A stretch of 61,545 nt of DNA, filler included, from Sphacelaria rigidula (GCA_964200075.2; 7 parts of 7 records of this genome joined end to end with filler, not necessarily neighbours in it), one strand, 5' to 3'. Shown: positions 4,180 to 61,545, counted from the whole stretch's first letter. Notes: generated by a model not told the origin, from the letters alone. Translations and numbers: made by a program.

Positions 4180-6905
4180 GCCTCGATCGACTGCTTGAAG
4201 CCTTCTTCGAGCGCTCTGAATGTCACCTTCTACAGTGGCGCGGGCAACGCCACACTCTCGATGGGCTATTCGAAGCAGAAGCCCCAGAATATCATATATC
4301 ACAAGCCACATGATGCTCTCAAACGGCTGTTTGCATCGATATCCCCAAGATACTGCTGCGGCTGTGCGAGCACGATTAACCCTCAACCAGCGTCTTAATA
4401 CATTCCAAACATGGGCTTCTGCATTGACGAACGTTATGCAACGCCTCTCCATGCGCTTGTTCACTTTTTCTCAAACGCCATGCTAACCCTCGACGAGCTG
4501 GTGCAAGCGATTTACGAACGTCGGTCATTGGAACGACACAGGTCACCGCCTTTGACGGGCTCGTTGTTTTGTATCCACCCGTCCGCTGCTGCAGCGACGC
4601 TGGCGCCGCCATATCCTGGATCGGCTGGTCGAAGCAACCTCCGAACGTCAGCTACTGCAGCGACGCGCAGGCCACGTCACACACTCGATCGGCTGGCTAA
4701 AGCCATCTTCGAACGTCAGCTGCTACAGCGACGCAGGTCATGTCACACTTTCGAGCGGCTGGTTGAAGTAAGCTCCGAGCGTCAGTTACTGCAGCGATGC
4801 AGGCCATGACACACCCTCGATGGGCTGGTTGAACCTCATTCCGAACTTCAGCTGCTGCAATGACGTAGGCCACGCCACACCCTCGATAGGCTGGTTGAAG
4901 GCTTTCCCGAAGGTCAGCTGCTGCAGCGACGCACGCCACGCCACACTCTCGATGGGCTGGTTAAACCTCATGCAGAACGTCAGCTGCTGCAGCGACGAAG
5001 ACCACGCCACACCTTCCCGTCGGCTGGTTGAAGCAATATCCGAACTTTAGCTGCTGCAGTGACACAGGCCACGCCACACCCTCGATCGGCTGGTTGAAGC
5101 AATATCCGAAAGTCAGCTGCTGCAGCGACGCAGGCCACGCCACACCCTCGATCGGCTGGTCGAAGCAATATCCGAGCGTCAGCTTCTGCAGCGACGCAGG
5201 CCACGCCACACTCTCGATCGGCTGGTTGAATTCATATCTGAATGTTAGCTGCTGCAGCGATGCAGGCCACGCCACACCCTCGATCGGCTGGTTGAAGCAA
5301 TCTCCGAACGTCAGCTGCTGCAGCAACGCAGGCCATGTCACACCCTCGATCGGCTCGTTGAACCTTGTTCCGAACGTCAGCTGCTGTAGTGATGCAGGCC
5401 ACGCCACATCCTCGATAGGCTGGTTGAACCTTGTTCCGAACGTCAGCTGCTGCAGCGATGCAGGCCACGCCACACCCTTGACCGGCTGGTGAAAGCAACC
5501 CCCGAACGTCAGCCGCCGCAGAGATGTAGGCCACGCCGCACTCTCGATGGACTGGTCGAAGTCATCTCCAAATTTCAGCTGCTGCAGCGATGCAGGCCAA
5601 GTCACACCCTCGATCGGCTGGTTGAAGGCATGCGCGAATGTCAGCTGCTGCAGCGACGCAGGCCATGTCACACCCTCGATCGGCTGGTTGAAGTAAACTG
5701 CGAGCGTCAGCTGCTGCAGCGACGCAGGCCACATCACACCCTCGATGGGCTGGTTAAAGGCAAAGCCGAAAGTCAGTTGCTGCAGTGACGTAGGCCACGT
5801 CACACCCTTGATCGGCTGGTCAAAGATATACCCGAACGTCAGCTGCTGCAGCGACGCAGGCCATGCCACACCCTCGATCGGCTGGTTGAAGGCATGCGCG
5901 AATGTCAGCTGCTGCAGCGACGCAGGCCATGCCGCACCTTCGATCGGCTGGTTGAAGTAAGCTCCGAGCGTCAGCTGCTGCAGCGACGCAGGCCACGTCA
6001 CACTCTCGATGGGCTGGTTGAATATCATTCCGAACTTCAGCTGCTGCAGCGACGCAGGCCACACAACACCCTCGATAGGCTTGTTGAAGAACTCTGCGAA
6101 CGTTAGTTGCTGCAGTGACGTAGGCCACATCACACCCTCGATCGGCTGATTGAAGTATTTTCCGAACGTCAGCTGCTGCAGCGACGCAGGCCACACGACA
6201 CCCTCGATGGGCTGGTTGAACCTTGTTCCGAATGTCAGCTGCTGCAGCGAAGAAGGCCAGACCACTTCCGTGATGGGTTGATCAAACTTTCCTGGCTTTC
6301 GACCACAACGGCCCCCGAACACAATTTTCCTGACTTGCGGGGGCCAGACAACATACTCCAGCCTACGGTCAAACATACAGCCAAAGTGCCAGTTTCGCAC
6401 GTTGGCCAAAACATTGGTCTTGCATGACAGGATTGCCGCGTCAGTACTCAACATCCACACAATACTGTGTGGTCGTAACAAAGGTACTCGAGGATTATCA
6501 TTGCGACCCATCCTTCCAGCCATCACAGTCGGAGATTGCTCGGCGGTATCGGCCCATAGCCTGAGCGGTGTAGATATATCAATGTTCACCAATAGCGTGC
6601 TTACGCCGCGGCAAGCGATGCAGAGCTGTAGTGACGCCAACTGTAGTTGTTTTGTCCGCAAATATGACGTTCCCCCAGAGGAAGCCTCGTTGAGGGCAGT
6701 GGTGAAGGCGTCCAGACAAAGCTTGCTACCTGCCCCACAAACATGGAACGAGCGCTGTGCGGTTGAGCTTCTCTGGGATTATCAAGCAGCGACGTGAAAT
6801 CCGTCGCGAGTTGATGACGCAACGTGGGTCGGTACAGATTCTCAAAGAATGACGAAGGAATCGAAGAACAGTACGTGAAAACAGGAGCTTCAAGCTATTG
6901 ACCAT
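4180..6905 (-). pseudogene. FNIP-repeat (22-aa LRR-like) protein gene, disrupted; main open frame 4961-6661
   Basis: 66-bp tandem unit encoding FNQPIEGVAWPASLQQLTFGxx: 19 units in the 566-aa ORF plus about 6 more after a +1 frameshift at ~5015. In-frame stops near 4786, 4740 and 4725, and degenerate units down to ~4180. The non-repeat N-terminus is broken by a stop or frameshift around 6670-6730. Confidence 0.88.
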
Positions 6906-8620
6906 CGCACGCGCTTATTCTTCAGCCTTGTCCCACCTCCACGGGAATCGCGGGAAAATCATCATATCGAATTATCAGCGGATTTTACAGACTTCCTCAT
7001 GGTGACACCAGATATTCGTACTACTTCAACTAACTGGAGCTTCGTCCAAAAGGGGTGAAGGAGACCCTGAAGGTCACTTCACGGTGTTACATAGCATCAA
7101 ACTTTCACCCACGTGCACTAGACCACTCTTGTATGTGCGTTGGCACGCCAGTCGCCCATAATTCCTAGTAAGGAACGAAAGTATGGTATCGAAAAAATGC
7201 TCGAGCTCAAGGGCTACAATTCGCTGAACTGTAGTTATTGTACTGCAGTGCCTACTGCATGCGTTATGTTTTTGCTGAGATGTATACATTCCACTGCCCA
7301 AGACCCACCTCACCTGCTGCCGTTTCGAGGCCGGTGTCAGACACGTCAGTCCGCGCAACGTCGTGAATGTTTGCGATCGGAATAACTGTGCTGCAGGAAC
7401 CCGCCATCACTCAGCACTCCGCGCCGACAAATCTACGGCGAAGACAACAGAGAGCTGAGAACAAGTATACACCCTCTCGTGGAGGTTTTTCATTCGTGCA
7501 CACCTGCGATCGGAGAGACGAAAAACGACATCGTAAGATTGATGATGAGTCACTGCACCATTCCATGCATATCGCTCTCCACTGAGATTTGATCCACAAG
7601 CTGGGGATGGTTAGCCCTCGTACCGCTGTAGCTAGTGGGGGCGAACAGCCTGACAATCGCGGCACCAATGAGCGGATGGCAACCACCAGTTCATGAATGA
7701 ATCACGTGCCTTCATGCCAAACTTTGACAGACGGTAGTGGTAGCAGCCTACAGGACAGTTGTGAAAGCTGAGCATGTGATCTGACAGGCCATCAACATCG
7801 CCGATTGGTAGCTGAACCAATGGCGTTACCGATGCTAACCGTGACTTTTCCCTTCTATCTCATCTCCCTCTCGAGCAACCAACGTACCGATCCAAAGCAC
7901 TAAAGTGCGTGTCATATTGCTCGCTAGTCGTGAATACCTCGAACCAACCCGCACCAACAAGACATCAACAGGCTGAAATCGCAGAAATGATTGAACTCGA
8001 TTCGCACAGTTCCACCCGGACCATACGCAATTTCAATGTGCACCCGCAGGAATGGTGAATATTATGCCGTTGGCTGCCTGTTCGACCAGATTTTGGATTT
8101 GTACATTATCTGGAACGCTACACTCTTGTAATCAGCATCAGCCCGGTTGCGATCTGACCCTGCCTTCCGTCGCTCCCCAACGTAGCCCTTACTTCTCCCA
8201 TGTTTCCCCGATGAACCGACATATCCGAAAATAAACCGCGTGTCGCGGAGATATTTCCGTCTTGACCTTCATGACATCAATGAAATTTACCCTTGTATAC
8301 ACACAAGGTTGATATTCCAGTGCCCCCTGGTCGGGACAAACTATAACCACCATAGCGCCGCGTGTGCTGGTGTTGTTGCAGCTCTCAATAATGGCCTCCA
8401 TGTACAGAAGCATCAGGCACCTTGATGTACCCTGGTACATGTTTCAACTATAGGACAACTTTCCTCATGTCTTCCGCGCTAAAGTAAATACTATATCCAA
8501 GCAAATAGGCGGAAAACCACCGCTGTTTAGTGACCAATACCCCTCACCACTATGCGCACATAGGTACGGACACCTCCGGCTTCTTCACATTTCAGGGAGA
8601 GTGCACGACCTCCTACTCAC

Positions 8621-8707
8621 GAGCCATCCTACGATAGGGGGGGGGGGGGATTTTGGGCCATTTGTTGCTCGAAATTGCGAGCCAGATCGTCGTTGAAAGC
8701 AGCAACG
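8621..8707 (+). mobile_element. Partial GAG-TIR MITE (Sola-like family), cut by contig end
   Basis: gagccatcctacgatagggg...cgtcgttgaaagcagcaacg matches the left part of the complete copy at 56585-56845. Confidence 0.8.
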
Positions 8708-8807
8708 NNNNNNNNNNNNNNNNNNNNNNNNNNNNNNNNNNNNNNNNNNNNTTAATTAATTAANNNNNNNNNNNNNNNNNNNNNNNNNNNNNNNNNNNNN
8801 NNNNNNN
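8708..8807. other. Artificial contig linker N44-TTAATTAATTAA-N44 (also at 17515-17614, 26322-26421, 35129-35228, 43935-44034, 52741-52840)
   Basis: Identical 100-nt spacer occurs six times and carries stops in all six frames. Intervening segments are 8707, 8707, 8707, 8707, 8706, 8706 and 8705 bp, i.e. size-sorted unplaced contigs. Confidence 0.97.
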
Positions 8808-16000: not shown

Positions 16001-18010
16001 GTTTATGGCTGGGGTGGATGGCTTCTATCTTCCGGGAGGAGCGCCCAACTCTTTCAAGGAGGGGGACGAGGTGCGATGCCCGTGCACGAGTGCGTTTTAG
16101 GTTGTCCCGCCATCATCGCACGACAGTAAATATTGAACAATGCAGTGATGCAATTCGTTATGCTGTATAGAGCAGCTTATAGCCCCAGTCAGGCACTTAC
16201 GTTCGATTGTTCTGTCACCTGTTGCTCTTCTCGACGTGGGCAGATCCGAGCGCTCCCCCACCGCGCCCCCCGTCTCCCTTCACTCGCCCAAAGATGTGCA
16301 CGAGATTACACTCGGTCGAAGACGCATCGAACTTTTTGTGCATGAAGCATCGAAAGCATCGACTGTTTTGTAGTCTACTGTATGGTCTGTCTACTGCAGA
16401 TTTTGGTCCTCCTGAACTCGACTCCAACCCCACGGTCGGGTTACGCAATGCCCATGTGCGGTAAGACTAATGCCCTGTACCCGTTCTGGTTCTTTTGGGC
16501 TATGCTACTGCACTGTCTGTACTCCATCGTACCCTCTGTGTACAGTAGTCCATCGCGCGCATCCTGCTGTGCATGTCTTTCTAATACGCTGGACGTATGT
16601 AGAGCGTGTCAAATTTATGCGACTTGTCATATCGAAGTAAATGGTGTCGAAAGAGTCGATTGTTACTGCGACTTCACTACTGTTTGTTGGCGTTCGCTGT
16701 AGACATGGCGTATTCTAGGCTCAGAAGCGGTGAGCGCGCGCGGTCGGCATCTAAATGTGTCGATGTATATGCTTCACTGGGAATGTTCCCAATTTGGTGC
16801 TGAGTAGAGTGCGACAGAGCTTTAGAGTTCCACACAGAGCAAAGGTGAGGGGTTGGCGTCTCGCACCGGCTCGTCGAGGGTTCTTGCTTCCCGTGTTTGA
16901 TCTGTCAGGAACTTCTGGCGAACGAGAGTCGTAAGCGGGAAGACTTCTGTTATTTGCGTGAGTGTGTTGAGTCGTCGAAGGCTGGAGAGAACGGTCACAA
17001 GTGGTGTGCTCGCCATGAGAGAGTATTCGCGAGGGCGCATAACCTCGGACTTGAACAGGCTTGGCCGGGCAGGAAAACTACAGTTTTATATGGCCATATC
17101 TTTAGAATGGCATTGAGTCAGGGCAAGCTGAGCATATCGCTGGAGCTAGTTAAGGCGATCGATCGCGCAGCCGCCCTGCGCAGGAATCCGCCAAATCGGC
17201 GTCGTGAAAGTAATGTCTCCTTGTTTGCGCTTTTTTTTGTATCAGGCTTTTGTGTTGGCTCGTTTGATCCACACCGGAAAACTATTCCGAATTTGCCCAA
17301 TCTTGCTGAGCGTTTGATTCACAGACAAGGAAAGGCAGTGAAGGTATCATCTCATGGTTTTTCGTTGTCCGAAAGCTATATTCGAAACCGAGGGCCCCAT
17401 ATCGGAAAATCCATGCACCACCCCCCCCCCCTACCCGTGGTCGAGAATGAGGAAAATGCCAAATCAATTCGGGAAATACCTCTTTCTTCCTATTTCTCCG
17501 CTAGTATACGGAATNNNNNNNNNNNNNNNNNNNNNNNNNNNNNNNNNNNNNNNNNNNNTTAATTAATTAANNNNNNNNNNNNNNNNNNNNNNNNNNNNNN
17601 NNNNNNNNNNNNNNCTCCCATCCCACGGTATTTCGAGATTTCATTACCTACCCTACTCGCCCAATCCGGTATTTTGAAATATCATACCTACGATACCTAC
17701 GTATACCAGGGTATGGGATACACCGGTAAATACCGGGGGTGCGCTCGGTACGGTACCTTACCTACGGTGCCTGTGAAACGTTTTTTTCCATGAGAGGTTC
17801 GAGCGTTCTCGTAAAAAAATGATCGTTACCATACAAAAACGCCCCCAATCAGTGAAAACTAATAATACCCAACCTCCCCCATTTTTCTGGGTTCATCACG
17901 ACCTAGCAAAGTTCCGCACAAAGTTTCAACCCACAAACACCAAACTTGGGCCGATAAACGGCCTGCAAAATACTGTTCCGAATTTCCACCGCCTCGGTTT
18001 TTCAAAGGTA

Positions 18011-18274
18011 AATTCGCACTTTTTTTCTTGGAGTTGGAAAGTGAAATTTGGTATGGACAATCAACAGGGCATGAAGAAAAGCTGTCTGTGAGGTCCTAAC
18101 GATTTTTTTTCGTGAATTGAGGGCGAAAATCACTTTTGAGGTTCTAGTAAAATGCCCTCAACTCATGAAAAAATGAAAGAAATCGTTGGGACCTCACAGA
18201 CAGCTTTTCTTTATGCCCTGTTGATTGTCCATACCAAATTTCACTTTCCAGCTCCAAGAAAAAAATTGCGAATT
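18011..18274. repeat. Long foldback (about 110-bp arms)
   Basis: ttcttggagttggaaagtgaaatttggtatggacaatcaacagggcat...gctgtctgtgaggtcc pairs with ggacctcacagacagc...atgccctgttgattgtccataccaaatttcactttccagctccaagaa. Confidence 0.9.
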
Positions 18275-18319
18275 CGCCTGCAAAGTACATATCCGCTTGT
18301 AGGCTGGCCCAGCCTGTAT

Positions 18320-18526
18320 TCAGGCCCGTTGACGAGCTGCGGGAAATTTCAGCATATCTTCGATGGAATTTTCTTCCTCCATCGACAGTACATTACCCAG
18401 ACCAACCCTGCCAGCTATGCCCACGCTACCACTGACACGCTTCTGCAGCGAACCAACGGAGATGTCAAAGGTCTTTGCAGCAGCATGGAAGGTCATGCGA
18501 CCGCTGCGTAACGCTTCTGGGTCCAC
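18320..18526 (-). pseudogene. pogo/Tigger-type transposase N-terminal remnant (HTH_psq plus start of CENP-B HTH)
   Basis: ALRSGRMTFHAAAKTFDISVGSLQKRVSG...GRVGLGNVLSMEEENSIEDML fits the psq HTH followed by the 'G...L..EEE..' linker of pogo-family transposases. Confidence 0.7.
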
Positions 18527-18792
18527 CCTTCCTTGTCCTCTGCATGCTTAGCAGCCGATCGACCAAAATGCTCTTTTTGGAGAAAGACACACACGCGCTT
18601 ATTCGCAGTGCTGTGGGATGGTGTTTTTTTCTATGTAAAAGGCATGCGCAGTAGCTCAAAAGAAGTGCCGTGCTCTTGTGCACACGCAGCAAAAACCAGA
18701 ATGGAAAACGATCAATATTTCGCGGAGTTATGGACGATTAACAAAAATAGTTCCTTAATTGGTACTGTCCCGAAATAGGGACGTTTACTCTA

Positions 18793-19243
18793 AACACGGG
18801 ATCATACAAATTGGGGATGGATCTTTAATTGGGGATGGGGAACCCGCATAATTAAAATCTTCGTATCCACACCAAATCTTTGAAATATGGTTCCATTTCT
18901 TCACCTACTGATAGCTATTGACAATTGCTGCACGCCACAGAGATTTGGATTTCGACCACCAAAATATTGGGGTCCTAGGTAAAAAGCCAATTTCGGAACG
19001 ATTTTGGCGTCCGTAGGGACACCCGGAATTCCCCCAAATTGGTTTTTCACCTGGGACCCCCACGTTTCGGTTATCGAAATCCAAATTTCTATGGCGTGTA
19101 GCAGTTGTCAATAGATACCAGTAGGTGAAGAAATGGAGCCATGTTTCGAAGATTTGGTGTGGATACGAAGATTTGAATTCTCCGGGTTTCTCACCCCCAA
19201 TAAAAGATTCATCCCCAATTTAATATTTGTAAGATCCCGTGCT
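18793..19243. mobile_element. Palindromic MITE (~450 bp, ~190-bp TIRs), copy 1
   Basis: Ends aacacgggatc / gatcccgtgct with long self-complementary arms. Flanks tcta / tgta suggest a degenerate 4-bp TSD. Confidence 0.85.
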
Positions 19244-20241
19244 TGTAGCAGCAGTCGTTCATTTGCTCTGCACTCCTTGAACACCTCCGTTCGGGATAAA
19301 TGCCTCAGTCCATCAACTCTCGTGCATGTATCCCAACCCCCGAGGGCAACATTGAGCTCAATCATACTGTAGCGCTCGAACGTATGTGTCTTGTTAGGTC
19401 CAAATCATACCCGATGTACCTTGCCCACGCTCTGCACAACAACATGGCTGACAGCAACGACACGCCGATCTGAGTCTCCGCAGTCGACTGACGAGCTGAT
19501 CGCCCCAGTCAGGCCCTTCAATCCGTGGAAACCCCGGCCACCAAAATGTAGCTCTCACTGCTCGCCAAAGGTAAAAGTTTCGGAGCCCGTTGCAGTTATC
19601 TCTGTGAGGATTGCGAGAGAAAAAGGTACTTGTTCGACGACGACCTGACGCCTGCTTCTTGACTTCACCTCCCCCCCTCCCCCTGATCTCTTCACATGCT
19701 CTGTGCGTGCGCCTCCAAGTAGTTTATTGCTGTTGAATAATATTGAATGTAGTTGACGTGGATGACACGTCTTGGCGTTGGTCCGCGGTGAGGATTCAAA
19801 ACCGCCGACTGTGATTCCAGTTGTATTCGTGAAGATGTGTGTATCATGTAGCTTGAATGCGACGAAACTGACACAATTTTTCGAGTGTTTCTACGATAGT
19901 CCCTCCCCCAAAAGTGTCTGGTTCGGGGAGGCAAAGTCTACACGTGAACCGAAACGAGAAAAAGCCGAGCACAGCGAGCAGCTTGGAATTCCCACGCTTG
20001 GATTCGTTTTCACTAATGTCGCCAATATGAGGCGCTTATTGCAGCCTGAAACCAAACATCAGGCGCCGTATGACCATTTTCTTCGTGACAGTTTTCGGCT
20101 GGTTTTGGGGAAGGGGGGGGGGGGGGTATCGCAGGAAGTGTCTACAGTGAATAATTATTCATGAATTCATGGATGCATGTTTTTTTGTTCAACGTTGATT
20201 AATCTGATAGTCTCTTTTTGTAAGACATGGCCTTGCGCCAT

Positions 20242-23200
20242 CTACGGGGGTTGCGAAAAAACCCGATTTGAGACGTTGCTTGAGGCAGTGGAGAGCTTTT
20301 TTAGAATGGCCTCAATGTCCATTTTCAGCGGCACACACCTCGAGCTTGACGATGCTCTACACCGCGAAAGTGCTCGTACACAAGTGAACCCCACTGTGGC
20401 GCCGGAGGGGAGGTCAATACCGTTCTTTTCGGAGATTGGGTCTTGGAGGTCAAGGCACGGGGGCCGAAAGTTGACCCCTAGCAAGTAGGTCTGCTCTCTA
20501 TCCGTGATATATACAGTAGAATTACTTGTCACAGGTGAACAACCGGCTGTATGTCCCTGCCGGAGGGGAGGTGAATATCGTTCTTGTCGTAGAGCAGGTC
20601 TTGGAGGTCAGGGCACGAGGGCCGAAAGTTGACCCCTGGCAAGTAGTTCTGCTCTCTATCCGTGATACATACAGGAAGAATTACTTGCCACAGGTGAACA
20701 ACCGGCTGTATGTCACCGCCGGAGGGGAGGTGAATACCGTTCGTGTCGGAGATCAGGTCTTGTAGGTCCGGGCACGAGGGCCGGAAGTTGCCCCCTGGCG
20801 AGTAGTTTTGCTCTCTATCGGAGTTACACTCGGTAGGAATTACTTGCCAGAGGTGAACAAGCGGCTGTATGTCCTCACCGCAGGGGAGGTGAATACCGTT
20901 TGTGTCGGACATCAGGTGTTGGAGATCCGAGCACGAGGACCGAAAGGTGACCCCAGGCAAGGACTTCTGCTCTCCATCCGTGATGCATACAGTAAGAATT
21001 ACCTGCCACTGGTGAACAACCGGCTGTATGTCCCCGTCGGAGCGGAGGTGGATATCGTTCTTGTCGTAGAGCAGGTCTTGGAGGTCAGGGCACGAGGGGC
21101 GGAAGTTGAACCCTGACGAGTAGTTCTGCTCTCTATCGGAGTTACACTCGGTAGGAATTACTTGCCACAGGTGAACAACCGGCTGTATATCCCCGTCGGA
21201 GGGGAGGTGAATATCGCTCGTGTCGTAGAGCAGGTCTCGGAGGTCAGGGCACGAGGGCCGAAAGTTAACCGCAGGCAAGTAGTTCTGCTCTCTATCCGTG
21301 ATACATCCAGTAGGAATTACTCGCAACAGGTGAACAATGGGCTGTATGTCCCCGCGGGAGGGGAGGTGAATACCGTTCGTATCGGAGTTAAGGTCTTGAA
21401 GGTCCGGGCACGAGGGCCAGAAGTTGACCCCTGGCAAGTAATTTTGCCCTCTATCGGAGTTACACTTGGTACGAAGTACTTGCCACAGGTGAACAAGTGT
21501 TAGCCGGAGGGGAGGTGAATATTGTTTATGTCGTAGAGCAGGTGTTGGAGATCATCGCACGAGGGCCGAAAGTTGACCTCTGGCAAGTAGGTCTGCTCTC
21601 CATCGGAGCTACAGTTGGTACGAATTACTTGCCACAGGTCAACAACGGGCCGTATGTCGCCGACGGTGTCGCCGACGGAGGGAAGGTGAATATCGTTGTT
21701 GTCGGACATCAGGTCTTCGAGATCACGGCACAAGGGCCGAAAGATGACCCCTGGCAAGTAGGTCTGCTCTCTATCCGTGATACATGCAGTAGGAATCACT
21801 TGCCACAGGTGAACAACCGGCTGTATGTCCCCGCCGGAGGGGAGGTGGATATCGTTCGTGTCGTAGAGCAGGTCTTGGAGATCAGGGCACGAAGGCCGAA
21901 AGATGACCCCTGGCAAGTAGTTCTGCCCTCTATCCGTGATGCATACAGTAGGAATCAATCGCCACTGGTGAACAACCGGCCGTATGTCCCCGCCGGAGGG
22001 GAGATGAATATCGTTGTTGTCGGGGATCAGGTCTTGGAGGTCAGGGCAGGAGGGCCGGAAGTTGACCCCTGGCAAGTAGTTCTGCTCTCTATCCGCGATA
22101 CATACAGTAGGAGTTACTTGCCACAGGTCAACAACCGGCTGCGTGTCCCTACCGCAGGGTAGGTGAATATCGTTGTTTTCGGACATCAGGTCTTGGAGGT
22201 CCGGGCACGAGGGCCGGAAGATGACCTCTGGCAAGTAGTTCTGCTCTTTATCCGTGGTACATCCAGTAGGAAAACTTGACACACACTCAATATTCGGCTC
22301 CTTGTCCAGGCCAGAAGAACCCACAGCTGGATGCCGTTCGTGTCGGGGATCAGGTCTTTTAGGTCCAGGGACGAGCGCCGGGTGTTGACTACAGGCAAGT
22401 AGGTCTGCTTCCTATCGGAGGTACACTTGGTAGGAGTTACTTGCCACAGGTGTACAAGCGGCTGTATGTCCTCGCCGGAGGGGAGGTGAATGCCGTTCGT
22501 GTCGGCGATGAGGCCTTGGAGATCCGGGCACGAGGGCCGAAGGGTGACCCCTGGAAAGTAGTCCTGCTCTCTATCCGTGATACATATAGTAGGAATTACT
22601 TGCGACTGGTGAACAACCGGCTGTATGTCACCGCCGGAGGGGAGGTGAATACCGTTCGTGTCGGAGATCAGGTCTTGGAGATCAGGGCACGAGGGCCGAA
22701 GGGTGACCCCTGGCGAGTAGTTCTGCTCTCTATCCGTGATCCATACGGTAGGAATTACTTGCCACTGGTGAACAACCGGCTGTATGTCATCGCCGGAGGG
22801 GAGGTGAATACCGTTCGTGTCGGAGATCAGGTCTTGGAGGTCAGGGCACGAGGGCCGGAAGTTGCCCCCTGGCGAGTAGTTCTGCTCTCTGTCGGAGTTA
22901 CACTCGGTAGGAATTACTTGCCACAGGTGAACAAGCGGCTGTATGTCCTCACCGGAGGGGAGGTTAACATCGTTCTTGTCGGACATCAGGTGTTGGAGAT
23001 GCGGCCACGAGGGCCGAAAGGTGACCCCAGGCAAGGTGTTCTGCTTCTCATCCGTGATGCACACAGTAGGAATATTTTGCCACTGGTAAACAACGGGCTG
23101 GATGTCCCCGACGGAGGGGAGGTGAATATCGTTCTTGTCGTAGAGCAGGTCTTGGAGTTCAGGGCACGAGGGCCGAAAGTTGACCCCAGGCAAGTAGTTC

Positions 23201-26200
23201 TGCTCTCTATCCGGGATACATAGAGTAGGAATTACTTGCAACAGGTGAACAATGGGCTGGATGTCCCTGCCAGAGGGGAGGTGAATTCCGTTCTTGTCGG
23301 AGATCAGGTCTTGGAGGTCCGGGCACGAGGGCCGGAAGTTGACCCCTTGCAAGTAGTTATGCTTTATATCGGAGTTACACTTGGTACGAATTTCTTGCCA
23401 CAGGTGAACAAGTTCCCGCCGGAGGCCGAAAGTTGACCCCCGGGAAGTAGTCGTACTCTCCATCCGTCATACATCCAGTAGGAATTGCTTGCCACAAACA
23501 CGGCATCTTACAAATTGAGTATGGATTTTTTATTGGGGATGAGAAGCCCGGAGAATTCAGATATTCGTATCCACCCCGAATCTTCGAAATATGGTTTCAT
23601 TTCCTCACCCACTGATAGATTTTGACAACTGCTACACGTCTTAGAAATTCGGAGCACGATCACCGGAACGTTGGGGTCCTAGGGGAAAAACTAATTATGG
23701 GGAATTCCGGGTGTCCGAGCGGATGCCAAAATGGTTCCAAAATTAGTTTTTGACCTAGGACCTTAAAATATCGGTGGTCGAAATCCAGATTTGTTTGGCG
23801 TCTTGCAGTTGTCAAGAGCTATCAGTAGTTGTAGAAATGGAACCATAGTTCGAATATTTGGTGTGGATACGAAGATTTTGTTGCTCCGGGTTTCTTATCC
23901 TCAATGAAAGATCCATCCCCAATTTTTAGGATCCCGTCTTCACAGGTGAACAAGCGGTTGTATGTCACCGCCGGAGGGGAGGTGAATATCGTTCGTGTCG
24001 GAGATCAGGTGTTGGAGGTCCGGGCACGAGGGTCGGAAGTTGACCCCTGGCGAGTAGTTCTGCTCTCTATCAGAGTTACACTTGGTACGAAGTACTTGCC
24101 ACAGGTGAACAAGCGGCTGTATGTCCCCGCCAGAAGGGAGACGAATATCGTTCGTGTCAGCGATCAGATGTTGGAGGTCAGGGCACGAGAGCCGAAAGTT
24201 GACTCCTGGCGAATAGGTCTGCTCTCTATCTGTGATACACTCGAGATGGATTACTTGCCACTGGTGAACAATCGGCTGTATGTCCCCGCCGAAGGGGAGG
24301 CAAATATCGTTCGTGTAGGACATCAGGTCTTGGAGGTCCGGGCGCGAGGATCGGAAGTTGATTCCAGGCGAGTAGTTCTGCTCTCTTTCCGTAATAGCAC
24401 TTAGTTATTTTTTTCATCCGTGATACATACAGTAGGAGTTACTTGCAACATGTCAACAACCGGGTGTATGTCCCCGCTGGAGGGATGGTAAGTATCGTTT
24501 TTGTCAGAGATTGGGTTTTGGAGATCAGGACACGAGGGGCGAAATATGACCCCTGGCAAGTAGTTTTGCTCTCTATCGGGGGTACATGCAGTACGAAGTA
24601 CTTGCCACAGGTGAACAACCGGCTCTAGGTCCCCGCCAGATGGGGGGTGAACATCGTTTGTGTCGGAGATTAGGTCTTGGACGTCAGGGGACGAGGGCCG
24701 AAAGTTGACCCCTGGCGAGTAGTTCTGATCTGTACCCGTGATACATACGGTAGGAATTGCTTGCCACAGGTCAACAACCAGCTGTGTGTCCCCGCCGGAG
24801 GGGAGGTGAATATCGTTCGTGTCGAAGATTAGGTCTTGGAGGTCAGGGCACTAGGGCCGAAAGTTGACCCCTGGCGAGTAGTTCTATTCTTCAGCGGAGG
24901 TACACTTGACAAGAATTCCTCGCGACAGCTCAACAACCGGCTGTGTGTCCCCTCGGACGAAAGGTGAATATCAATATTGTCGGAGATGGGTTCTGGAGAT
25001 CAGGGCACGAGGGCCAAAAGATAACCCCTGACAAGTAGTTTTGATCTCTATCCATAGGACATACAGTAGGAATTGCTTGCCCCAGGTGAATATCCGGCTG
25101 TCCGTCCCCGCCGGAGGAGAGGTGAATATCGTTCGTATCGGAGATGAGGTCTTGGAGGTCAGGGCACGAGGGCCGAAAGTTGACCCCTGGCAAGTAGTTC
25201 TGCTCTCTATCCGTGATACATACGGTAGGAATTCTTCGCCACAGGTGAACAACCGGCTGTGTGTGTGTCCCGGAGGAGAGGTGAATATTGTTTTCGTCGA
25301 AGATCATGTCTTGGAGGTCAGGGCACGAGGGCCGAAAGTTGACTCCAGGTGAATAGTTCTGCTTTCCCCCGTGGTACACTCGCCATACAGTGGGAGTTAC
25401 TCGCCAAAGGTCAACAACCGGCTGTATGTAGCCGCCGAAGGGGAGGTGAATATCGTTTGTGTCGGAGAGCAGGCCTTGGAGGTCAGAGCACCAGGGCCGA
25501 AAGCTGACTCCTGGCAAGTAGTTCTGCTCTCTATCCGTGATACACTTGGTATGAATTACTCGCCCTAGGTCAACAACCGGCTGTATGTTCCCGCGGAGGG
25601 GAGGTGAATATCGTTCGTGTCGGAGAGCAGATCTTGGAGGTCAGGGCATGAGGGCCGCACGTTGACCCCTGGCAAGTAGTTCTGTTCGTTATCCGTGATT
25701 CATACGGTAGGAGTTATTCGCCATAGGTGAACAAGCGGCTGTATGTCCCCGCCGGAGGAGAGGTGAATATCGTTCATGTCGGAGATGAGGTCTTGGAGGT
25801 CAGGGCACGAGAGTCGGAAGTTGACTCCGGTTGAGTAGTTCTGCTCTCTATCCGTGAAACACTTGGTAGGAATTACTCGCTACAGGTCAACAATCAGCTG
25901 TGTGTCCCCGCCGGAGGGGACGTGAGTATCGTTCGTGTCGAAGATCAGGTCTTGGAGATCAGGGCACGAGGGCCGAAACCTGACCCCTGGCAAGTAGTTC
26001 TGCATTCCATCGGTGGTACACTTTACAAGAACTCTTGGCGACAGGTGAACAACATGCTGTGTGTGTCCCCGGAGGGAAGGTGAATATCAATATCGTCGGA
26101 GATTGGGTTCTGGAGGTCAAGGCACCAGGGCCGCAAGATGACCCCTGGCGAATAGCCCTGCTCTTCATCCGTGATACATACGGTAGGAATTACCTGCCAC

Positions 26201-26256
26201 AGGTCAACAACCGGCTGTATGTTCCCGCCGAAAGAGAGGTGAACATGGTTCGTGTC
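20242..26256 (-). pseudogene. Tandem 159-bp / 53-aa repeat protein gene of unrecognised family (~34 units), disrupted and 5'-truncated
   Basis: Period of 159 bp (aggtgaacaa-type motif at ~20533, 20692, 20851, 21010, 21169, 21328). Consensus WQVIPTVCITDREQNYLPGVNFRPSCPDLQDLISDTNDIHLPSGGDIQPVVHL. ORFs of 302, 274 and 425 aa. Recurrent variants are synonymous in this frame. Non-repeat tail at 20242-20400. Interrupted by frameshifts, a MITE at 23497-23940 and a MITE at 26257. Confidence 0.8.
23497..23940. mobile_element. Palindromic MITE, copy 2, inserted in the 159-bp array
   Basis: Ends aacacggcatc / gatcccgtctt. Perfect 4-bp TSD caca (23493-23496, 23941-23944); removing the element restores the array consensus ttgccacaggtgaac. 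Orientation is opposite to copy 1. Confidence 0.9.
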
Positions 26257-26321
26257 GAGTCATCCTACGATAGGGGGGGGGGGTATTTGGTTGCACGAAA
26301 AAAGAGGCTTATAAGTGTGTC
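26257..26321 (-). mobile_element. Partial GAG-TIR MITE (Sola-like family) inserted in the 159-bp array, cut by contig end
   Basis: gagtcatcctacgatagggg...tatttggttgcacgaaaaaagaggcttataagtgtgtc is the reverse complement of the right end of 56585-56845. Confidence 0.85.
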
Positions 26322-26793
26322 NNNNNNNNNNNNNNNNNNNNNNNNNNNNNNNNNNNNNNNNNNNNTTAATTAATTAANNNNNNNNNNNNNNNNNNNNNNN
26401 NNNNNNNNNNNNNNNNNNNNNAATTTGAGTCCCCCCGATTTTTTCAAAATCAGGATCCAAAAAATCGGGATTCGTTTGCCATAAAAGTGGGTCTAACCGG
26501 CTTTGTGATCGAGGATCCACAAAAGCTGTGGCATCGGAGTCGAAGATAAAATCAGTAGAGCTGAGGATTTGAACGTAAACAATGGCTGGTGCTCGGTTTT
26601 ACTTGATTTTAGAATAAATAAAGTTCTGAGAAAATTCATGGTCTGGGGCAGGTGAGCAGTGGACCCAGCTCGTCCAGAACGTGTTTTGGTCCAAAATCGG
26701 CTGGAAGACGTCGATTTGAGCTCTGGCAACGCACACTTCGCCCAGAGAACACTCTGCACCCCTTTGCCCGAGGGTTCTCGGTATACCTTGGTC

Positions 26794-35128: not shown

Positions 35129-35659
35129 NNNNNNNNNNNNNNNNNNNNNNNNNNNNNNNNNNNNNNNNNNNNTTAATTAATTAANNNNNNNNNNNNNNNN
35201 NNNNNNNNNNNNNNNNNNNNNNNNNNNNGGTTGGGTGTGGGGGTGGGGGTCCGGTCGGGTGGGTGTGGTGGGGGGGGGGGGGGGGGGAGGGACAACTTTT
35301 GATTTTTGCGACCAATCAAACATGGCTCTTTTTGAATGTTTGTTCCCTATGACGCTTCTTCTTGTGGTCTCGACAAGACACGGCCTTACCACTTGGGGGG
35401 CATAAAAGCGCGACGCCCATGAAGTAGGGCTGTGTCCCAGTCCGACGTCATAATAATCATGGTTGATGCCGGTAGATTCGGGTATGGGTACAAAGATTCA
35501 GATCTTTCAGTGACGCTGACGGTCTCGAGTGCTCCTACCGTGAGCGGAAAGGGATTTGAGGTCTGCTAACAAAGTAATTTGTCTAGGAAACCCTTCATGC
35601 CCCGCCCCCTCCTCCCCCCTTTGCCCATGGGTTCTAGGCATGCCTCGGGTTGGGCTTGG

Positions 35660-42873: not shown

Positions 42874-44056
42874 TGTGCAAGAGTAGAAAAGTCGTATGTG
42901 CACTTTTCATCCGTCCTCGTTAGCGTTAGCGTATGCTCTAATTTCGTCCTCGTTGTGGAGGTGTGGTGTGGCTTCCCCATGCACCATCGACTGACGTCTA
43001 TGTTAGCCTGTCTCACCGCTTTTCAGTGTCTCCTTGTGCACAGCTTCTACCAGCCTTCATTTCTTCCTGCGCGCCTTTTAGCACGATTCACGACGATAAA
43101 CGAGCCTGTCCACCAGGAGAACGTCAGACAAATGTGAGCATGAACGTCAACATGTTGGACTGATCTACAGACAGTAGTAGGGTGCATCACACCATCAGCA
43201 GTAAAAATTGGTACACACAGTGGTGTCTGACACCGCTCGCTCGTAAGCTGGGACGACCTTACGCAACGGGTTCGAGTGCTCTTCACATAATGGGCTAGGT
43301 ATTACGCGGTGAAGTAGGTGTAGGTGTGATGATGACAAATGACGCGGTTGATTATTACATGTCCGTGTCGATGTTGATTTCATGTTCTGGTTGGGTATTT
43401 CATCATTTGATCATTTTCCAGGTGGATCACGTATCTATGCCCGAGCTATGCCTCATACCGAAGATGATGGGACGTACGGCACGGCAGAATTTCGAAAATC
43501 TGTAGGTTCCCTCCATACCAGCGGGGACCCTTGCTGTTTGCTCAGCAGCGATTCATCGGTGATTGTGATCGTATAGCAAACGAAAAAAGACAAACCGCAC
43601 TCGTACCGCATTTATCTTGTACGGACGGTTCCATGATTTACTGTACGATATCCAACGAGCTGGGGCAGCCTAAAAACGGATGAACTGTTGTCGCAGCCAT
43701 AATTTATCGACGCGGACGATCTGGGTAGCACATGTTGTCAACTCTTTGACGGCGAGGATAGGCCATCTGTTGAATTGACATCACTTTCGCATGAAAAATA
43801 GTGCGTGACCCCAGGAGTGCCCAAAAGAAAAATGCGAGGCTCTATGCCGATTTTTTCAATCCTGGCTGTTTTCGGGGGGGGGGGGAGGGGCGTACTCATT
43901 TGTTGCTTGCCTTAGTCGTTCGAGCATTGACCACNNNNNNNNNNNNNNNNNNNNNNNNNNNNNNNNNNNNNNNNNNNNTTAATTAATTAANNNNNNNNNN
44001 NNNNNNNNNNNNNNNNNNNNNNNNNNNNNNNNNNAGAAATGACTAAAACATGAACA

Positions 44057-52104: not shown

Positions 52105-52398
52105 ATAATAATACTACAAGTATGATGATGACAATGACAATGACAACGATAACGATAACGACATTGACAATGTCGATGAAAGTGAAAATGGTAGAAATGA
52201 ATAAAATAATAACGACAATGATGACGATAATAATGATGATAATGGGAACTTATAGATGATCGTGATAATGACAATGATAATGAAGTACTAATAATAGCGA
52301 TAATAATAGCAATTCAATTGCTACAACAATAATACTGACAGCGACATAGTAATACATACATACATACATACATACATACATACATACATACATACATA
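52105..52398. repeat. Low-complexity (GAT/AAT/GAC)n tract followed by (CATA)n microsatellite
   Basis: Direct reading. Other microsatellites: (GGCAAGA)n 9114-9141, (ATC)n 45203-45245, (AT)n 45521-45547, (ATAGAT)n 48778-48805. Confidence 0.9.
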
Positions 52399-52697
52399 CC
52401 CGACCGGGTGATGCCGTGATAGCCCCCCCCCCCCCCCCCCCAAAACAAACATTGAGAAGAAAATGGCCAATGAGCGCATGACGGCTGGTTTCGGAATGCG
52501 CGAGGCGCCTCATGTGGACGATATTGGCGAAGCGGACCCGAGCGTGCGAATTCCCCGCTGCTCCCTATGTTCGGCTTTTTTTCATCTTGATGTACATGTA
52601 AATTTTGCCTCCTCAAACCAGCCACTTTATCTTCTTCGTTTTCTTTGGGGGGGGGGGGGGGGGGGGGGCGGGGGGGGTTTTGGGGGGCGGCGGGGGC

Positions 52698-52728
<31 letters not shown>

Positions 52729-52914
52729 CAAAAAAAAAAANNNNNNNNNNNNNNNNNNNNNNNNNNNNNNNNNNNNNNNNNNNNTTAATTAATTAANNNN
52801 NNNNNNNNNNNNNNNNNNNNNNNNNNNNNNNNNNNNNNNNCGTGCTCCGTCCCGGCATTGTAGGGATGCGAGGTCAATGGTCTGATGACTATGGCATGCA
52901 TAATCATGAGTACA

Positions 52915-56531: not shown

Positions 56532-56584
56532 GCTGCAAGGATTTTATCCTCAAAGTAGCGAAACCTTAAGGTTTTTCTTCACTC

Positions 56585-56845
56585 GAGTCATCCTACGATA
56601 GGGGGGGGGATATTTTGGGCCACTTCTTGCACGAAGTTTGGAGTCAAGTCGTCGTTGAAAGCAGCAACGGTTATTCGAACGAGCTTGTTGTGGATTCATA
56701 ACGCTCATCCATACTGCCTGACACCGTTTGAAACCAAATACAAGCGCAACGCAAGTGTGGCAGGTCGTCTGAGGTCGTCTGACACACTTATGAGCCTCTT
56801 TTTTCGTGCAACCAAACACCCCCCTCCCCTATCGTAGGATGACTC
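56585..56845. mobile_element. Complete 261-bp MITE with GAG...CTC TIRs and 4-bp TSD (Sola-like)
   Basis: TIR gagtcatcctacgatagggg / cccctatcgtaggatgactc. TSD actc at 56581-56584 and 56846-56849. Confidence 0.9.
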
Positions 56846-57376: not shown

Positions 57377-60300
57377 TCAAAGCGGTGCGTGGACGTCGTG
57401 GGTGTGGTCGATGTTGCGCTGGAGGCCGCGGCAAAATCCTTTGGACTTGAGGCGCTGAAGGCACCAGGATCCGCGTGGTGCAGATGGGCTGGTGGTGTAT
57501 AGTGCTGGCCGGAGCTTGAGCAGTATGGGTCCAGGGCCATCGATGAAGCGCACGATGTATGTGTCGGCAGAAACCAGGTTGGCGGAGTGGGTCTGGCCCA
57601 ACCACCAGAGGCTGTCGCTGCCTTTGAACCAAAGTTAGCTGCCCTTGGGCAGTATTCGCTGGTTTGCGAAAAACTTTGTCTTACAAGTCTTGGTGGGTAC
57701 AAGTCCGTGACCATCGGCGACGAAGCGCAGTCCCTGATCGCGGTGAAGTTCGCGGGCTGCGGCGCCACGACGCATGTTGCGATATTTCTTGTTGTGAGCA
57801 AGATACTGATGTTGGGATTGCGTCCAGTACAGAAGGATTGCACGGCGGTGCAATTGAAGGTCGGAGTCGCGTTCCCAAGACGCTCTCCGAAGACCGTCTC
57901 AGTGGGTCTTATACATGACAGCAATTTTGCGACCTCGACCACAGGTTATCCGGCGGCCGGAGATGGTGGACACGGTCAATTGGAGGGGCTGTTCCGTCAC
58001 GTCGTCGGTGCTAACATGTTAGGGCGGGGACTTGGTCGAGTAGCTGTTGAGAACATAGTGTGTGAGTCCGGCAGGCAGGTACTTGGACATGTCGCTTGTG
58101 TCATGCGGGTTCGTGCAGGGTTTGCATCCCTGCACAGAGACGCGGGGTTTGGTGTCCTTGCCCTGGAAGTCGCGAGGCAGGTCGAGATAGAGCAGTTTGT
58201 CACCAACAGATTCATCATCCGGTGATGATGGCGATGGTTCGACTGTCAGGATCTTGAATGGTCCTGTCCAATTGAGGGACAATTTTGTCTTCAAAATTGT
58301 TTCGTTGGCTGCCTTGCTGGTGCCTTGGCGGACGGTCGACAAACTGTTGTAGATCCAAACCAATCACCAAATTTCCAGTTGGGGCTTTTGTGCATGAGGT
58401 TGTAGAAAGCAGTGCTAGATCTCTCCAGGCGCGAGGCGTTGATGGCGTGTTGTTCGCTCACGAGGGTAAACGCTTTGCGTTGTCGTGAATGCGCTGGCTC
58501 GTGATAGGATATCTGATCCTGATCCAATCCTCGCTGGTCATCGAACGTGTGTCGCTCAAACACGGTGATGAGCAGCCGAGGGTAACGTCCAAGATGAAGA
58601 TCGTTCGGAGAAAGGCCGGTAGCGGCGTTAAGCGAGTTGTTGTAGGACAACATGATGTGCGAGAAATGTAGCTCCCAATCATTTTGGCGGTCATTGACAC
58701 CCATAGAGAGCATCTGGGCCATGGTGTGATTAACTCTTTCGGTACCAACGTTACCGTTCGGGTGGTAGGCGCTCGTGGCAATTTTACGGATGCTCAGGAG
58801 CTTGTAAAACTCATCAGAAAGGTCTGAGAAAAATTGCTGACCATTGTCTGAAAGGAGTCGCTTCGGGTAACCGTAGTGCTTAATGTAATCGTGGACCAAT
58901 GTGTCGGCCGTGCCGACGGTAGTGAAGTCAGCAGCGGTTACCTCGTACATGGACGCGCGGCGGCTGAAGCGGTCAGTGAGAACAAGATGTAGGTGTTGCC
59001 GCGACGTGTGGTCAGTAGAGGGCCAAAGTAGTCAAAGGACACAAGGTGGGCTGGTGCGTTGAGGAGTCCCATGGAGATGACTGGCCAGCGTACTGTCTGC
59101 CGTGAAGTCTTTCGGACTTGGCATTTGAAGCATCGCCGAATCCAGAGGCGGGTGGAAATTTCCATGCCAACCCACCAGTAGAAGCGTTCCAAGAGATGTA
59201 GGATGCGGGTGATCCCAAGGTGACATGACAAGTCTGTGTGACAGCCTTTCATGACCCAGGGGCGAATCAGGAATGGGACATATTTGCGCGTTGGTTCGTC
59301 ATTGAGTAGTCCTACGTGGCGTCCCGTAGTTGAGACGAAAATTGCGCCCGTCAAAGGCGTGGGGCGACGCACGAGTAGTTGTACACCTTTTTTGGTGGTA
59401 CAAAGGGTGCCTTCACGCACGAATGCGTATACGTCAGAGATATCTGGTGGGGGCAGTTTGCCAACCGGGGCCAGAGGGGCGGATGAAAAAGGGACTGGAC
59501 AGTCAAGTTGTAAATACCGGATGGCTGCGCCACATAACGGTTCCGCATTTTGTTCGTGAGCCCAATCACGGTGAGAGTAGCTGGCGAGAAACTCGCGTAG
59601 TTGACCTTCCGCTGGCGAGCCGACCAAACATGGTGGGGTAGGCAGCGGGGGAATAGACGACGGGACAGGAATATCGACGTCAATATCTGTCCCGGGAGCA
59701 GGAGCTGAGTCGACAGCTCCATGCTCCGGAGCGGTAGATGTTGGTGGCGCCGTTACGGGCGGCGGGGCGGTATCAGTGCGCGGCGAAGATTGTCCGCAGC
59801 GCGTGGTGCATGCTGCAGGAGTTTCGCGGAGCGTTGCATGCTGATCCGTGGGACCGGTGCTGCGTGGCTCGTTGAATTTGCACTTGTTATCGGTAGTGGC
59901 GGGGCACTCGGGGGGGTGGTGCGGGCGGCAGACCGAGAGCGCGTGTTGTCGGAGATTGGGTGGGTGACCGAACGTGTTTCCGTCAAGAGCTTCGCGCGAG
60001 TACCGGAAGTGCGGACATCGACAAAATCAGAGGTAGTGGGCGCTAACCCACCCAAGACGGCGTAATATGGTAGAGGGCGGAATCCTCCAATATGCATATC
60101 AGTTTCTTGGCACTGAAGGTCGAGGGCGTAAACGGGCGTTGAAAAACGTCTAATCGGGTAAATTCCAGGTTCATCGAGTTCCGTTAGACGGCAAGCCGGG
60201 CTGGAATCTGCGGCCGTAGGCAGCCGGGGTAGTCGAGAAAAACAAACAGCGTTCCCGTTAGTTTACCTGGACGGTGCTTAATGGTATGCTGGTATGCTGT

Positions 60301-61400: not shown

Positions 61401-61404
61401 TTAA

Positions 61405-61511
61405 GAGTCATCCTACGATAGGGTGTACTCATGATGCATACCATAGTCATCAGACCATTGACCTCGCATAGGGGGGGGGGGTATTTGGTTGCACGAAAAA
61501 CGAGGCTCATG
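61405..61511 (-). mobile_element. GAG-TIR MITE end (Sola-like) inserted in Gypsy RT, itself carrying a 45-bp insertion
   Basis: ttaa|gagtcatcctacgataggg[tgtactc...ctcgca]tagggggg...tatttggttgcacgaaaaa. Confidence 0.8.
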
Positions 61512-61545
61512 ATTGTGGGAGAAGTAGTGCGACGGTTAGGGAAAG

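Follow-up and report, generated by a model that had tools for sequence, protein, structure and literature searches.

Nucleosome-length satellites, such as primate alpha satellite and the centromeric satellites of plants, are made of monomers of ~150-180 bp. Satellites are also known to be seeded by fragments of transposon open reading frames (ORFs): the excerpt of PMC9659126 used here gives as examples chicken HinfI (CR1 ORF2), PROsat of Phodopus (LINE-1 ORF2) and rye E3900 (gag-like). Here we describe a tandem array of a 159-bp unit from Sphacelaria rigidula (GCA_964200075.2). The array lies within a stretch of 61,545 nucleotides, fillers included, which was analyzed as a whole and which we call the window. 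A preliminary description of this DNA had taken the array for a decayed gene encoding a large repeat protein, rather than for a plain satellite. On balance, our results lead us to regard it as degenerate satellite-type repeat DNA that is non-coding now, with a decayed gene as a possible, less probable alternative. The array is non-functional today, and its evolution since amplification appears close to neutral.

A degenerate array of a 159-bp unit

The window consists of seven 8707-base pieces joined by linkers, and these pieces need not be neighbours in the genome. The array is located in the piece at 17615-26321, so that its context can be trusted within those limits only. The array and the breaks of its reading frame are the following.

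20400..26258, minus strand: tandem array of a 159-bp unit, with 33 near-full and 3 partial units (Tandem Repeats Finder and profile)
20529..20531, minus strand: Trp codon of the last unit turned into an in-frame TGA, then a 1-bp deletion (sequence)
21486..21634, minus strand: unit that has lost 10 bp and contains an in-frame TAA, a break of the minus-strand ORF (alignment)
23420..23494, minus strand: truncated unit, with model positions 1-75 alone; the other 84 positions are deleted before the next unit (start 23400) (profile)
23497..23940, unstranded: 444-bp hairpin insertion, resembling miniature inverted-repeat transposable elements (MITEs), between two units (inverted-repeat arms, direct repeat, second copy)

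Tandem Repeats Finder reported a period of 159 at 20400-23411 (18.9 copies, 80% matches), at 23941-24386 (2.8 copies) and at 24416-26257 (11.6 copies), with 76-83% matches across the three calls. A profile built from six units gave 36 matches in the whole window, all inside 20400-26258 and in a single orientation; 33 of these are near-full (at least 120 of the 159 positions), and three are partial. As in the usual definition of a satellite (a head-to-tail array with a monomer of at least ~100 bp), the units follow one another over a total of ~5.4 kb, in agreement with the ~34 units over ~5.4 kb, besides the MITE, counted previously. Spacing is exactly 159 for 21 of the 32 neighbouring unit pairs. 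Mean pairwise identity between units is 0.80, and it remains at 0.80-0.81 at each lag from 1 to 12, without any higher-order periodicity. We did not find any internal half-unit or sub-repeat within the 159-bp unit, at the DNA or at the protein level. The unit tree is star-like, its internal branches making up 14.8% of the tree length (13.4% in a second estimate). Since identity is flat over lags 1-12 and the tree is star-like, the concerted evolution characteristic of satellites is not observed here; the array looks like an old one, no longer homogenised.

The unit length is a multiple of three. For the main coding tests we used a boundary-corrected unit alignment, built from two phase-shifted profiles, whereas the periodicity tests were run on an earlier alignment with gaps at the unit boundaries. 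The majority consensus of the corrected alignment has no stop in minus frame 0, nor in the frame exactly antisense to it. Across 1729 codons, minus frame 0 contains six stops, the antisense frame 15, and each of the other four frames 48-94, consistent with the previous observation that the array is largely open in two antiparallel frames. The consensus translates to the very 53-residue sequence reported earlier, and the four plus-strand TAGs that had been singled out (at 20763, 22160, 24671 and 25724) all correspond to CTA Leu codons in the minus frame.

The minus frame is nevertheless broken many times, by the six stops, seven frame-shifting length changes, the 10-bp and 84-bp deletions, and the MITE. 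Of the non-159 spacings, seven out of ten are not multiples of three, and three are in frame. The uninterrupted frame of a functional or recently functional repeat gene is therefore not present in the array.

Five sequencing runs from two studies contain the stretch. Their contigs provide a measure of depth, which is not equivalent to copy number. Summed depth over the array bins ranges from 48.8 to 3068.6 in sample X2, against ~27-28 in the unique flanks, and from 23.9 to 1915 in sample X4, against 8.6-14.1. Across three samples, the depth of the unique flanks is ~27, 14 and 1-3, and that of the array bins is a few-fold to ~100-fold higher. In these three samples we also found contigs in which parts of the array are connected in a different order; the joint from 26222 to 25108, for example, is present in all three (depth 299.8, 262.7 and 30.9). 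These results suggest that there are further copies or arrays of the 159-bp family elsewhere in the genome. The highest summed depth in the array was found at 22812-23035 (224 bp), with 3068.6 in X2 versus 79-122 in the neighbouring bins, and both ends of this segment recur as joints to other array positions. One variant of the unit could be far commoner elsewhere, or could be carried by another repeat. A further run, presumed to be RNA (X8), gave contigs on the high-copy elements of the flanks and none on the array, which counts neither for nor against transcription.

The 444-bp insertion at 23497-23940 is a MITE, according to its size, arms, target-site duplication and copies. It has 204-nt arms that are 76% complementary, and a direct repeat of 4 bp, CACA, borders it on either side (23493-23496 and 23941-23944). 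A second copy with 82% identity is located at 18793-19250, and the summed contig depth of the insertion is 170,522-265,357 in X2, compared with ~27 in the unique flanks. From the hairpin arms, the CACA duplication, the second copy and the very high contig depth, we conclude that the MITE was inserted into an already existing array.

According to the explanation that we favour, the locus would be a dead tandem array of a nucleosome-length (159-bp) monomer, belonging to a lineage-restricted family with copies elsewhere, in a transposon-rich and gene-poor setting. The array would have arisen from one monomer in a single burst of amplification, through unequal exchange or slippage during replication, and at least one block duplication of several units would have taken part in it. 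The copies would then have drifted apart independently to ~80% identity, without later homogenisation, accumulating frameshifts, stops, deletions and the MITE insertion, and a second transposon would have truncated one end. The long reading frames would be mainly a by-product of a unit with a length multiple of three, whose founder was stop-free in one frame and in its antisense. The founder monomer was perhaps a piece of a gene exon or of a transposon ORF; an origin from a coding fragment would explain the gene-like base composition by codon position described below. MITE copies and high-copy elements are found on both sides of the array, a context that favours satellite DNA.

Coding constraint and a possible dead gene

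The preliminary description attributed to the minus strand a clear coding signature, which did not hold when all units were considered. Divergence from the consensus at codon positions 1, 2 and 3 is 0.091, 0.132 and 0.138, respectively. This is not the order expected for coding sequence, because position 2 would be the most conserved and here it varies about as much as position 3. With a permutation test that keeps the base and the CpG status of each change, the synonymous excess over 243 distinct variants is z=1.09 (p=0.16); taken alone, the 109 singletons give z=0.05 and the 134 shared variants z=1.40. Amino acid replacements are not more conservative than random (BLOSUM62 z=-0.79 in the corrected alignment, z=-0.08 in the first one).

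The calculation of dN/dS by frame, which had been proposed as a check, gave a near-neutral value for the minus frame. Under a Goldman-Yang codon model, omega (dN/dS) is 0.72 in minus frame 0 (2dlnL 9.4), and 0.75 (2dlnL 7.1) in the mirror frame, which has its wobble positions in common with minus frame 0 and carries three stops in the consensus. Two other frames have omega values of 1.65 and 1.72. This is the pattern that a mild three-base periodicity in rate yields whatever the coding status. Periodicity of the substitution rate was examined in the first alignment, where it has p=0.04 at period 3 and p=0.0014 at period 2. In the same alignment, even and odd unit positions have 2.30 and 3.34 changes per site, respectively (p=0.003). 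The hallmarks of purifying selection on a repeat gene (low dN/dS, position 2 most conserved, conservative replacements) were thus not found, and there is no convincing evidence that the array has been maintained as a protein. Two cautions apply to arrays of this kind. A stop-free founder unit with a length multiple of three gives rise to kilobase-long ORFs and to anecdotal silent changes, and a naive dN/dS of ~0.6-0.7 arises not just in the frame of choice but also in its mirror frame, which is unable to code.

Several observations weigh against the satellite explanation. An active satellite would typically be homogenised, which this array is not, and the multi-locus status of the family is suggested by joints and by contig depth, which is not copy number. 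The remaining points concern a coding past. We ran neutral simulations along the estimated tree (GTR+G, a general time-reversible model with rate variation), calibrated to the observed 12% divergence. Simulated omega was 0.94 +/- 0.14, and only 3 of the 136 simulations were as low as the observed 0.72. The six stops observed compare with 18.2 +/- 9.3 in the calibrated simulations (P=0.03). Among the 134 variants common to at least two units, 4.1 would be expected to make a stop in minus frame 0, and none does (P=0.014); in the other five frames, stop-making shared variants are at expectation. The singletons are not depleted in stops in minus frame 0 (5 stop-making, 3.4 expected). The GC content of the consensus at codon positions 1, 2 and 3 is 32, 20 and 36 of 53 (60%, 38% and 68%), which resembles that of an FNIP-repeat ORF in the same window (0.58/0.45/0.68). 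With the openness of both strands taken into account, the corresponding period-3 heterogeneity still has P=0.0058; among the other periods between 2 and 9, none reached p<0.05. Retention of the two Cys codons among the units is 0.91 and 0.88, compared with 0.68 expected (P=0.03). Finally, just 1 of the 53 third positions is invariant, versus 18 of the 106 first and second positions. Amino-acid conservation in the same calibrated simulations was 0.756 +/- 0.019, and 0.783 was observed (P=0.09).

These tests overlap; we selected them with the data already in view, and we selected the frame because it is open. Taken together, the signals are modest, and they keep a coding past of the minus frame plausible. 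They fit a founder monomer derived from coding sequence, and selection may have acted for a time while the units were being amplified.

Second in likelihood comes a decayed repeat-protein gene, which we consider possible though doubtful. It might have encoded a large lineage-specific protein, possibly secreted, made of 53-aa units with two conserved Cys residues in a beads-on-a-string arrangement. The units would tentatively have been duplicated while the frame was under selection, after which the gene would have died and decayed neutrally. Besides the open consensus and the length multiple of three, such a gene would account for the gene-like GC content by codon position (P=0.006), for the scarcity of stops and the omega below simulated values, and for the over-conserved Cys codons. 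It would also account for the behaviour of the shared, older variants, which make no stop and lean synonymous, and for that of the singletons, which appear neutral. Against it, replacements are not conservative, codon position 2 varies like position 3, a mirror frame with consensus stops has a similar omega, and the period 2 in substitution rate is stronger than period 3. We see neither an N-terminal region nor a promoter nor any unique domain, and a transposon truncates the 5' side; just 3 of the 10 length changes preserve the frame; and the family seems to be present at other places in other unit orders. The apparent invariance of the Trp codon was an alignment artefact, as it is kept in 0.67 of the units, with 0.60 expected. 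The protein collections searched also gave no homologue, nor did the contig collections, and we obtained no confident fold and low recognition by a language model (see below).

The proposal of a decayed gene rather than a plain satellite thus survives in part. The array has a unit length multiple of three, is open, is not a featureless satellite and carries weak hints of coding ancestry; its coding signature is weak and non-specific. A decayed gene is a possible reading, to which we give a minor share of our belief. If it did exist, the locus could conceivably be the fossil of a lineage-specific family of giant proteins, which would have arisen from an undescribed 53-aa two-Cys repeat amplified with its frame open. 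The extra copies would then include paralogues, some of them possibly intact or expressed. Such a case would represent an orphan repeat-protein family in an algal lineage, and a gene turning into satellite-like DNA, of moderate interest for research on the algal cell surface or on satellite birth.

Protein relatives, fold and RNA structure

We searched for relatives of the 53-aa repeat in several collections. An exhaustive HMMER search of 1,835,955,588 representative proteins returned three matches with E<=0.001, none of them credible: one was a junk repeat, and the other two were animal-type Death-NACHT-LRR proteins with 52-aa units of two leucine-rich repeats (LRR), here called P0002 and P0004. 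No match was found in two word-indexed protein searches (5.8 billion clusters; near and longer lengths), nor to the array ORFs among PDB sequences. A giant-virus or other viral origin had been suggested; we found no relative in IMG/VR, where 42 pattern matches yielded 0 confirmed. Similarly, JGI metagenome contigs gave 105 pattern matches, 0 confirmed, and 0 exact matches to a 23-nt unit pattern. Since intact homologues were absent from all of these (1.84 billion proteins, 5.8 billion word-indexed clusters, IMG/VR and JGI metagenomes), the relatives that the preliminary description would have needed are lacking as far as we have searched.

The array had been said to match no described repeat family, and we likewise obtained no robust Pfam match. 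The 340-aa array ORF scored 38.8 bits with DUF4768 (PF15989), above the 27-bit cutoff, and three of five array ORFs matched this family at E<=1, two of them exceeding the cutoff. We rejected this candidate: the score is a sum over repeats, and just one of four two-unit pieces matched, with 17.1 bits (E=0.0056), below the cutoff. CED4_WHD, Tir_receptor_M, SopE_GEF and, in the plus frame, DUF7513 were also rejected, all being weak and below the Pfam cutoffs.

The proposed AlphaFold check did not provide a confident fold. AlphaFold2, run on an alignment of six array ORFs, gave a mean predicted local distance difference test score (pLDDT) of 31 and a predicted template modelling score (pTM) of 0.26, with pLDDT below 50 over all 340 residues. 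In the ESM Atlas the best match was 0.76, and the language-model recognition was 996, a measure in which 91 of 100 proteins from known families reach 2300. The language-model atlas thus fails to recognise the array sequence as protein-like.

A loose resemblance to LRR had been pointed out, and loose it is; it fails both the Pfam threshold and the shuffle controls. We consider it very improbable that the unit is a degenerate double LRR, a relic of an LRR receptor gene akin to the ~52-aa two-LRR units. The best match is indeed P0002, a 2358-aa Death-NACHT-LRR_8 protein (E=1.9e-9, 53.3 bits, 21% identity), and P0004 belongs to the same class of proteins. In BLASTP alignments, several units stay in register, each with one gap, and in both halves of the unit LRR positions 1 and 4 are occupied by L or V, while position 9 is C or N. 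We controlled these scores with 4000 periodic shuffles, each applying one random column permutation to all query units. For P0002, one of the 4000 shuffled queries beat the real score (65.9 vs 53.3 bits); for P0004, none did (maximum 27.2 vs 35.5). From a library rich in periodic LRR proteins, such a match is to be expected by chance. Scores are summed over repeats and a shuffled periodic query reaches the P0002 score, so that the nominal E of 1.9e-9 is not evidence of homology; repeat-versus-repeat E-values of this kind, and summed Pfam scores, can mislead. Moreover, no Pfam LRR model reached its threshold (LRR_10 had 11.7 bits, with a cutoff of 30), position 6 is P or S in both halves, so that the hydrophobic core residue is absent, the unit lacks an internal half-unit repeat in its DNA and its protein, and AlphaFold did not give a solenoid, a failed model being weak evidence.

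It is even less probable that the array is part of a living gene that makes its protein, the breaks being assembly errors or introns. Some contigs do carry an extra base at 25431 (86.6 of 86.6 in X2, 53 of 53 in X4) and at 25593 (41 of 62.7 in X2, 16.7 of 16.7 in X4), and one or two of the frameshifts could be assembly errors or reflect paralogous copies. However, X2 contigs have 0 differences to the window across the break-bearing segments 20113-20589, 21468-21778, 24287-24723 and 24856-25133, and an X4 contig spans 20128-20573 with 2 differences and 0 gaps. Because contigs of two samples reproduce the window across them, several frame breaks are not assembly errors. The six in-frame stops, the MITE with its target-site duplication, the 84-bp and 10-bp deletions and the transposon-cut 5' end also contradict a living gene.

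The least probable reading is that the units act as structured DNA or RNA, for example with a hairpin on a 9-nt inverted repeat, or as an array of small RNA genes: in the consensus, unit positions 1-9 and 46-54 form a perfect inverted repeat of 9 bp, and a rotated profile matches four opposite-strand places over this part of the unit, but the fold energy of the unit is unremarkable (z=-0.85, equalled or bettered by 41 of 200 shuffles), there is no covariation at the inverted repeat (83.3% of cells paired vs 82.7% shuffled; 155 of 500 shuffles as high), and neither an Rfam family at E<=1 nor a tRNA was found within the array.

Flanking elements and comparison with known systems

The array is bordered by the following sequences, here listed together with the linkers of the window.

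20242..20399, minus strand: unique sequence adjoining the array (the "short unique tail"), single-copy by contig depth
19956..20112, unstranded: high-copy dispersed repeat with a G-run, in the left flank; limits are approximate, being the gap between single-copy contigs (contig depth)
26257..26321, unstranded: terminus of another high-copy element, which cuts the array mid-unit (recurrent terminus motif; the piece ends at 26321)
8708-8807, 17515-17614, 26322-26421, 35129-35228, 43935-44034 and 52741-52840: linkers N44-TTAATTAATTAA-N44, every 8806-8807 bases

The short unique tail of the preliminary description exists, as ~160 bp of single-copy sequence between the array and the high-copy repeat of the left flank. 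The bin at 20236-20469 has a depth of 28.2 in X2, compared with 27.4 in the bins at 19300-19767. The edge of the array is at 20400, and position 20242 is instead the stop of the tail. Because of the TGA at 20529..20531 and the 1-bp deletion that follows it, the tail is out of frame with the 340-aa array ORF.

In the left flank, the bins at 19768-20235 have depths of 84,584-121,617 in X2; single-copy contigs end at 19955 and resume at 20113. A copy of this repeat with 73% identity is located at 52418-52628, and the adjoining sequence (52381-52740) is of low complexity, with long C-runs, G-runs and ~40 bases of poly-A at the end of its piece. The terminus in the right flank is 95% identical to 56781-56845, and the bin at 26086-26300 has a depth of 170,577 in X2. 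Its motif occurs after unrelated sequence at ~8.62 kb, 56.58 kb, 56.85 kb (reverse strand) and 61.40 kb. Copies of the motif with the G-run were found at 26257-26321, ~8620-8650, 56583-56609, 56781-56845 (minus strand), 61403-61425 and 61468-61517. The sequence that precedes the motif differs at each copy, and motif plus G-run mark the end of a very high-copy element (depth ~1e5 in X2).

G-runs are present in both flanks of the array, together with a short motif that is similar on the two sides and inverted between them. Some contigs join 20142 directly to 26257 (n=4 in X2, n=3 in X4, with a short side of 25 nt), and thus the high-copy sequences from both sides of the array abut at a few other places of the genome. 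We considered that the whole 6.1-kb segment could be an insertion into a high-copy element, and rejected this as the main reading: the joint has a depth of 92.6 in X2 versus ~1e5 for the element, with short sides of 25 nt, and the two flanks share just the G-run and the short motif.

Two palindromes in the same piece, at 18025-18260 and 18953-19076, match plant microRNA-precursor models far below gathering thresholds (for example, 90 vs 211 bits for MIR8562); the second is part of the 18793-19250 copy of the MITE. Most likely, both stretches represent hairpin transposons and not microRNA genes. In other pieces, the FNIP-repeat ORF mentioned above (4961-6778, minus strand) encodes 605 aa consisting nearly entirely of FNIP repeats (PF05725, E=1e-90, 11 stretches). 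The array ORFs are unrelated to it (BLASTP E=1.2), and none of the five array ORFs has an FNIP match. Two adjoining ORFs at 58291-60026 (minus strand), with an integrase zinc-binding domain (46 bits) and an integrase core at 28.2 bits (below cutoff), are the remnant of a retrotransposon.

Among known systems, the array can be compared with the LRR units of P0002 and P0004. The period is similar (52 aa in those proteins, 53 aa here), and C, N, D, P and hydrophobic positions are in register. Unlike those units, the array has an identity of ~21-22% to them, its LRR position 6 is not hydrophobic, and it has neither a Pfam LRR match at threshold nor a solenoid model.

In the literature listings surveyed, nothing on 159-bp algal satellites or on brown-algal satellites names this repeat. 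With nucleosome-length satellites the array has in common head-to-tail monomers of ~160 bp over several kb, a lineage-restricted distribution, a transposon-rich setting, and its role as a target of insertions. It differs from them in its ~80% identity without higher-order repeats or local homogenisation, in its modest abundance, as gauged by a depth a few-fold to ~100-fold that of single-copy sequence, and in a monomer that has a length multiple of three, is open in two frames and shows a gene-like composition by codon position. A further comparison is with satellites seeded by transposon ORFs. Unlike the examples in the excerpt of PMC9659126, no unit of the array has any similarity to a transposon protein or a Pfam family, in Pfam or in the search of 1.84 billion proteins. 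Like them, as far as that excerpt describes them, the array has a monomer of coding-like composition whose frame is open, multiplied into non-coding tandem DNA within a transposon-rich neighbourhood.

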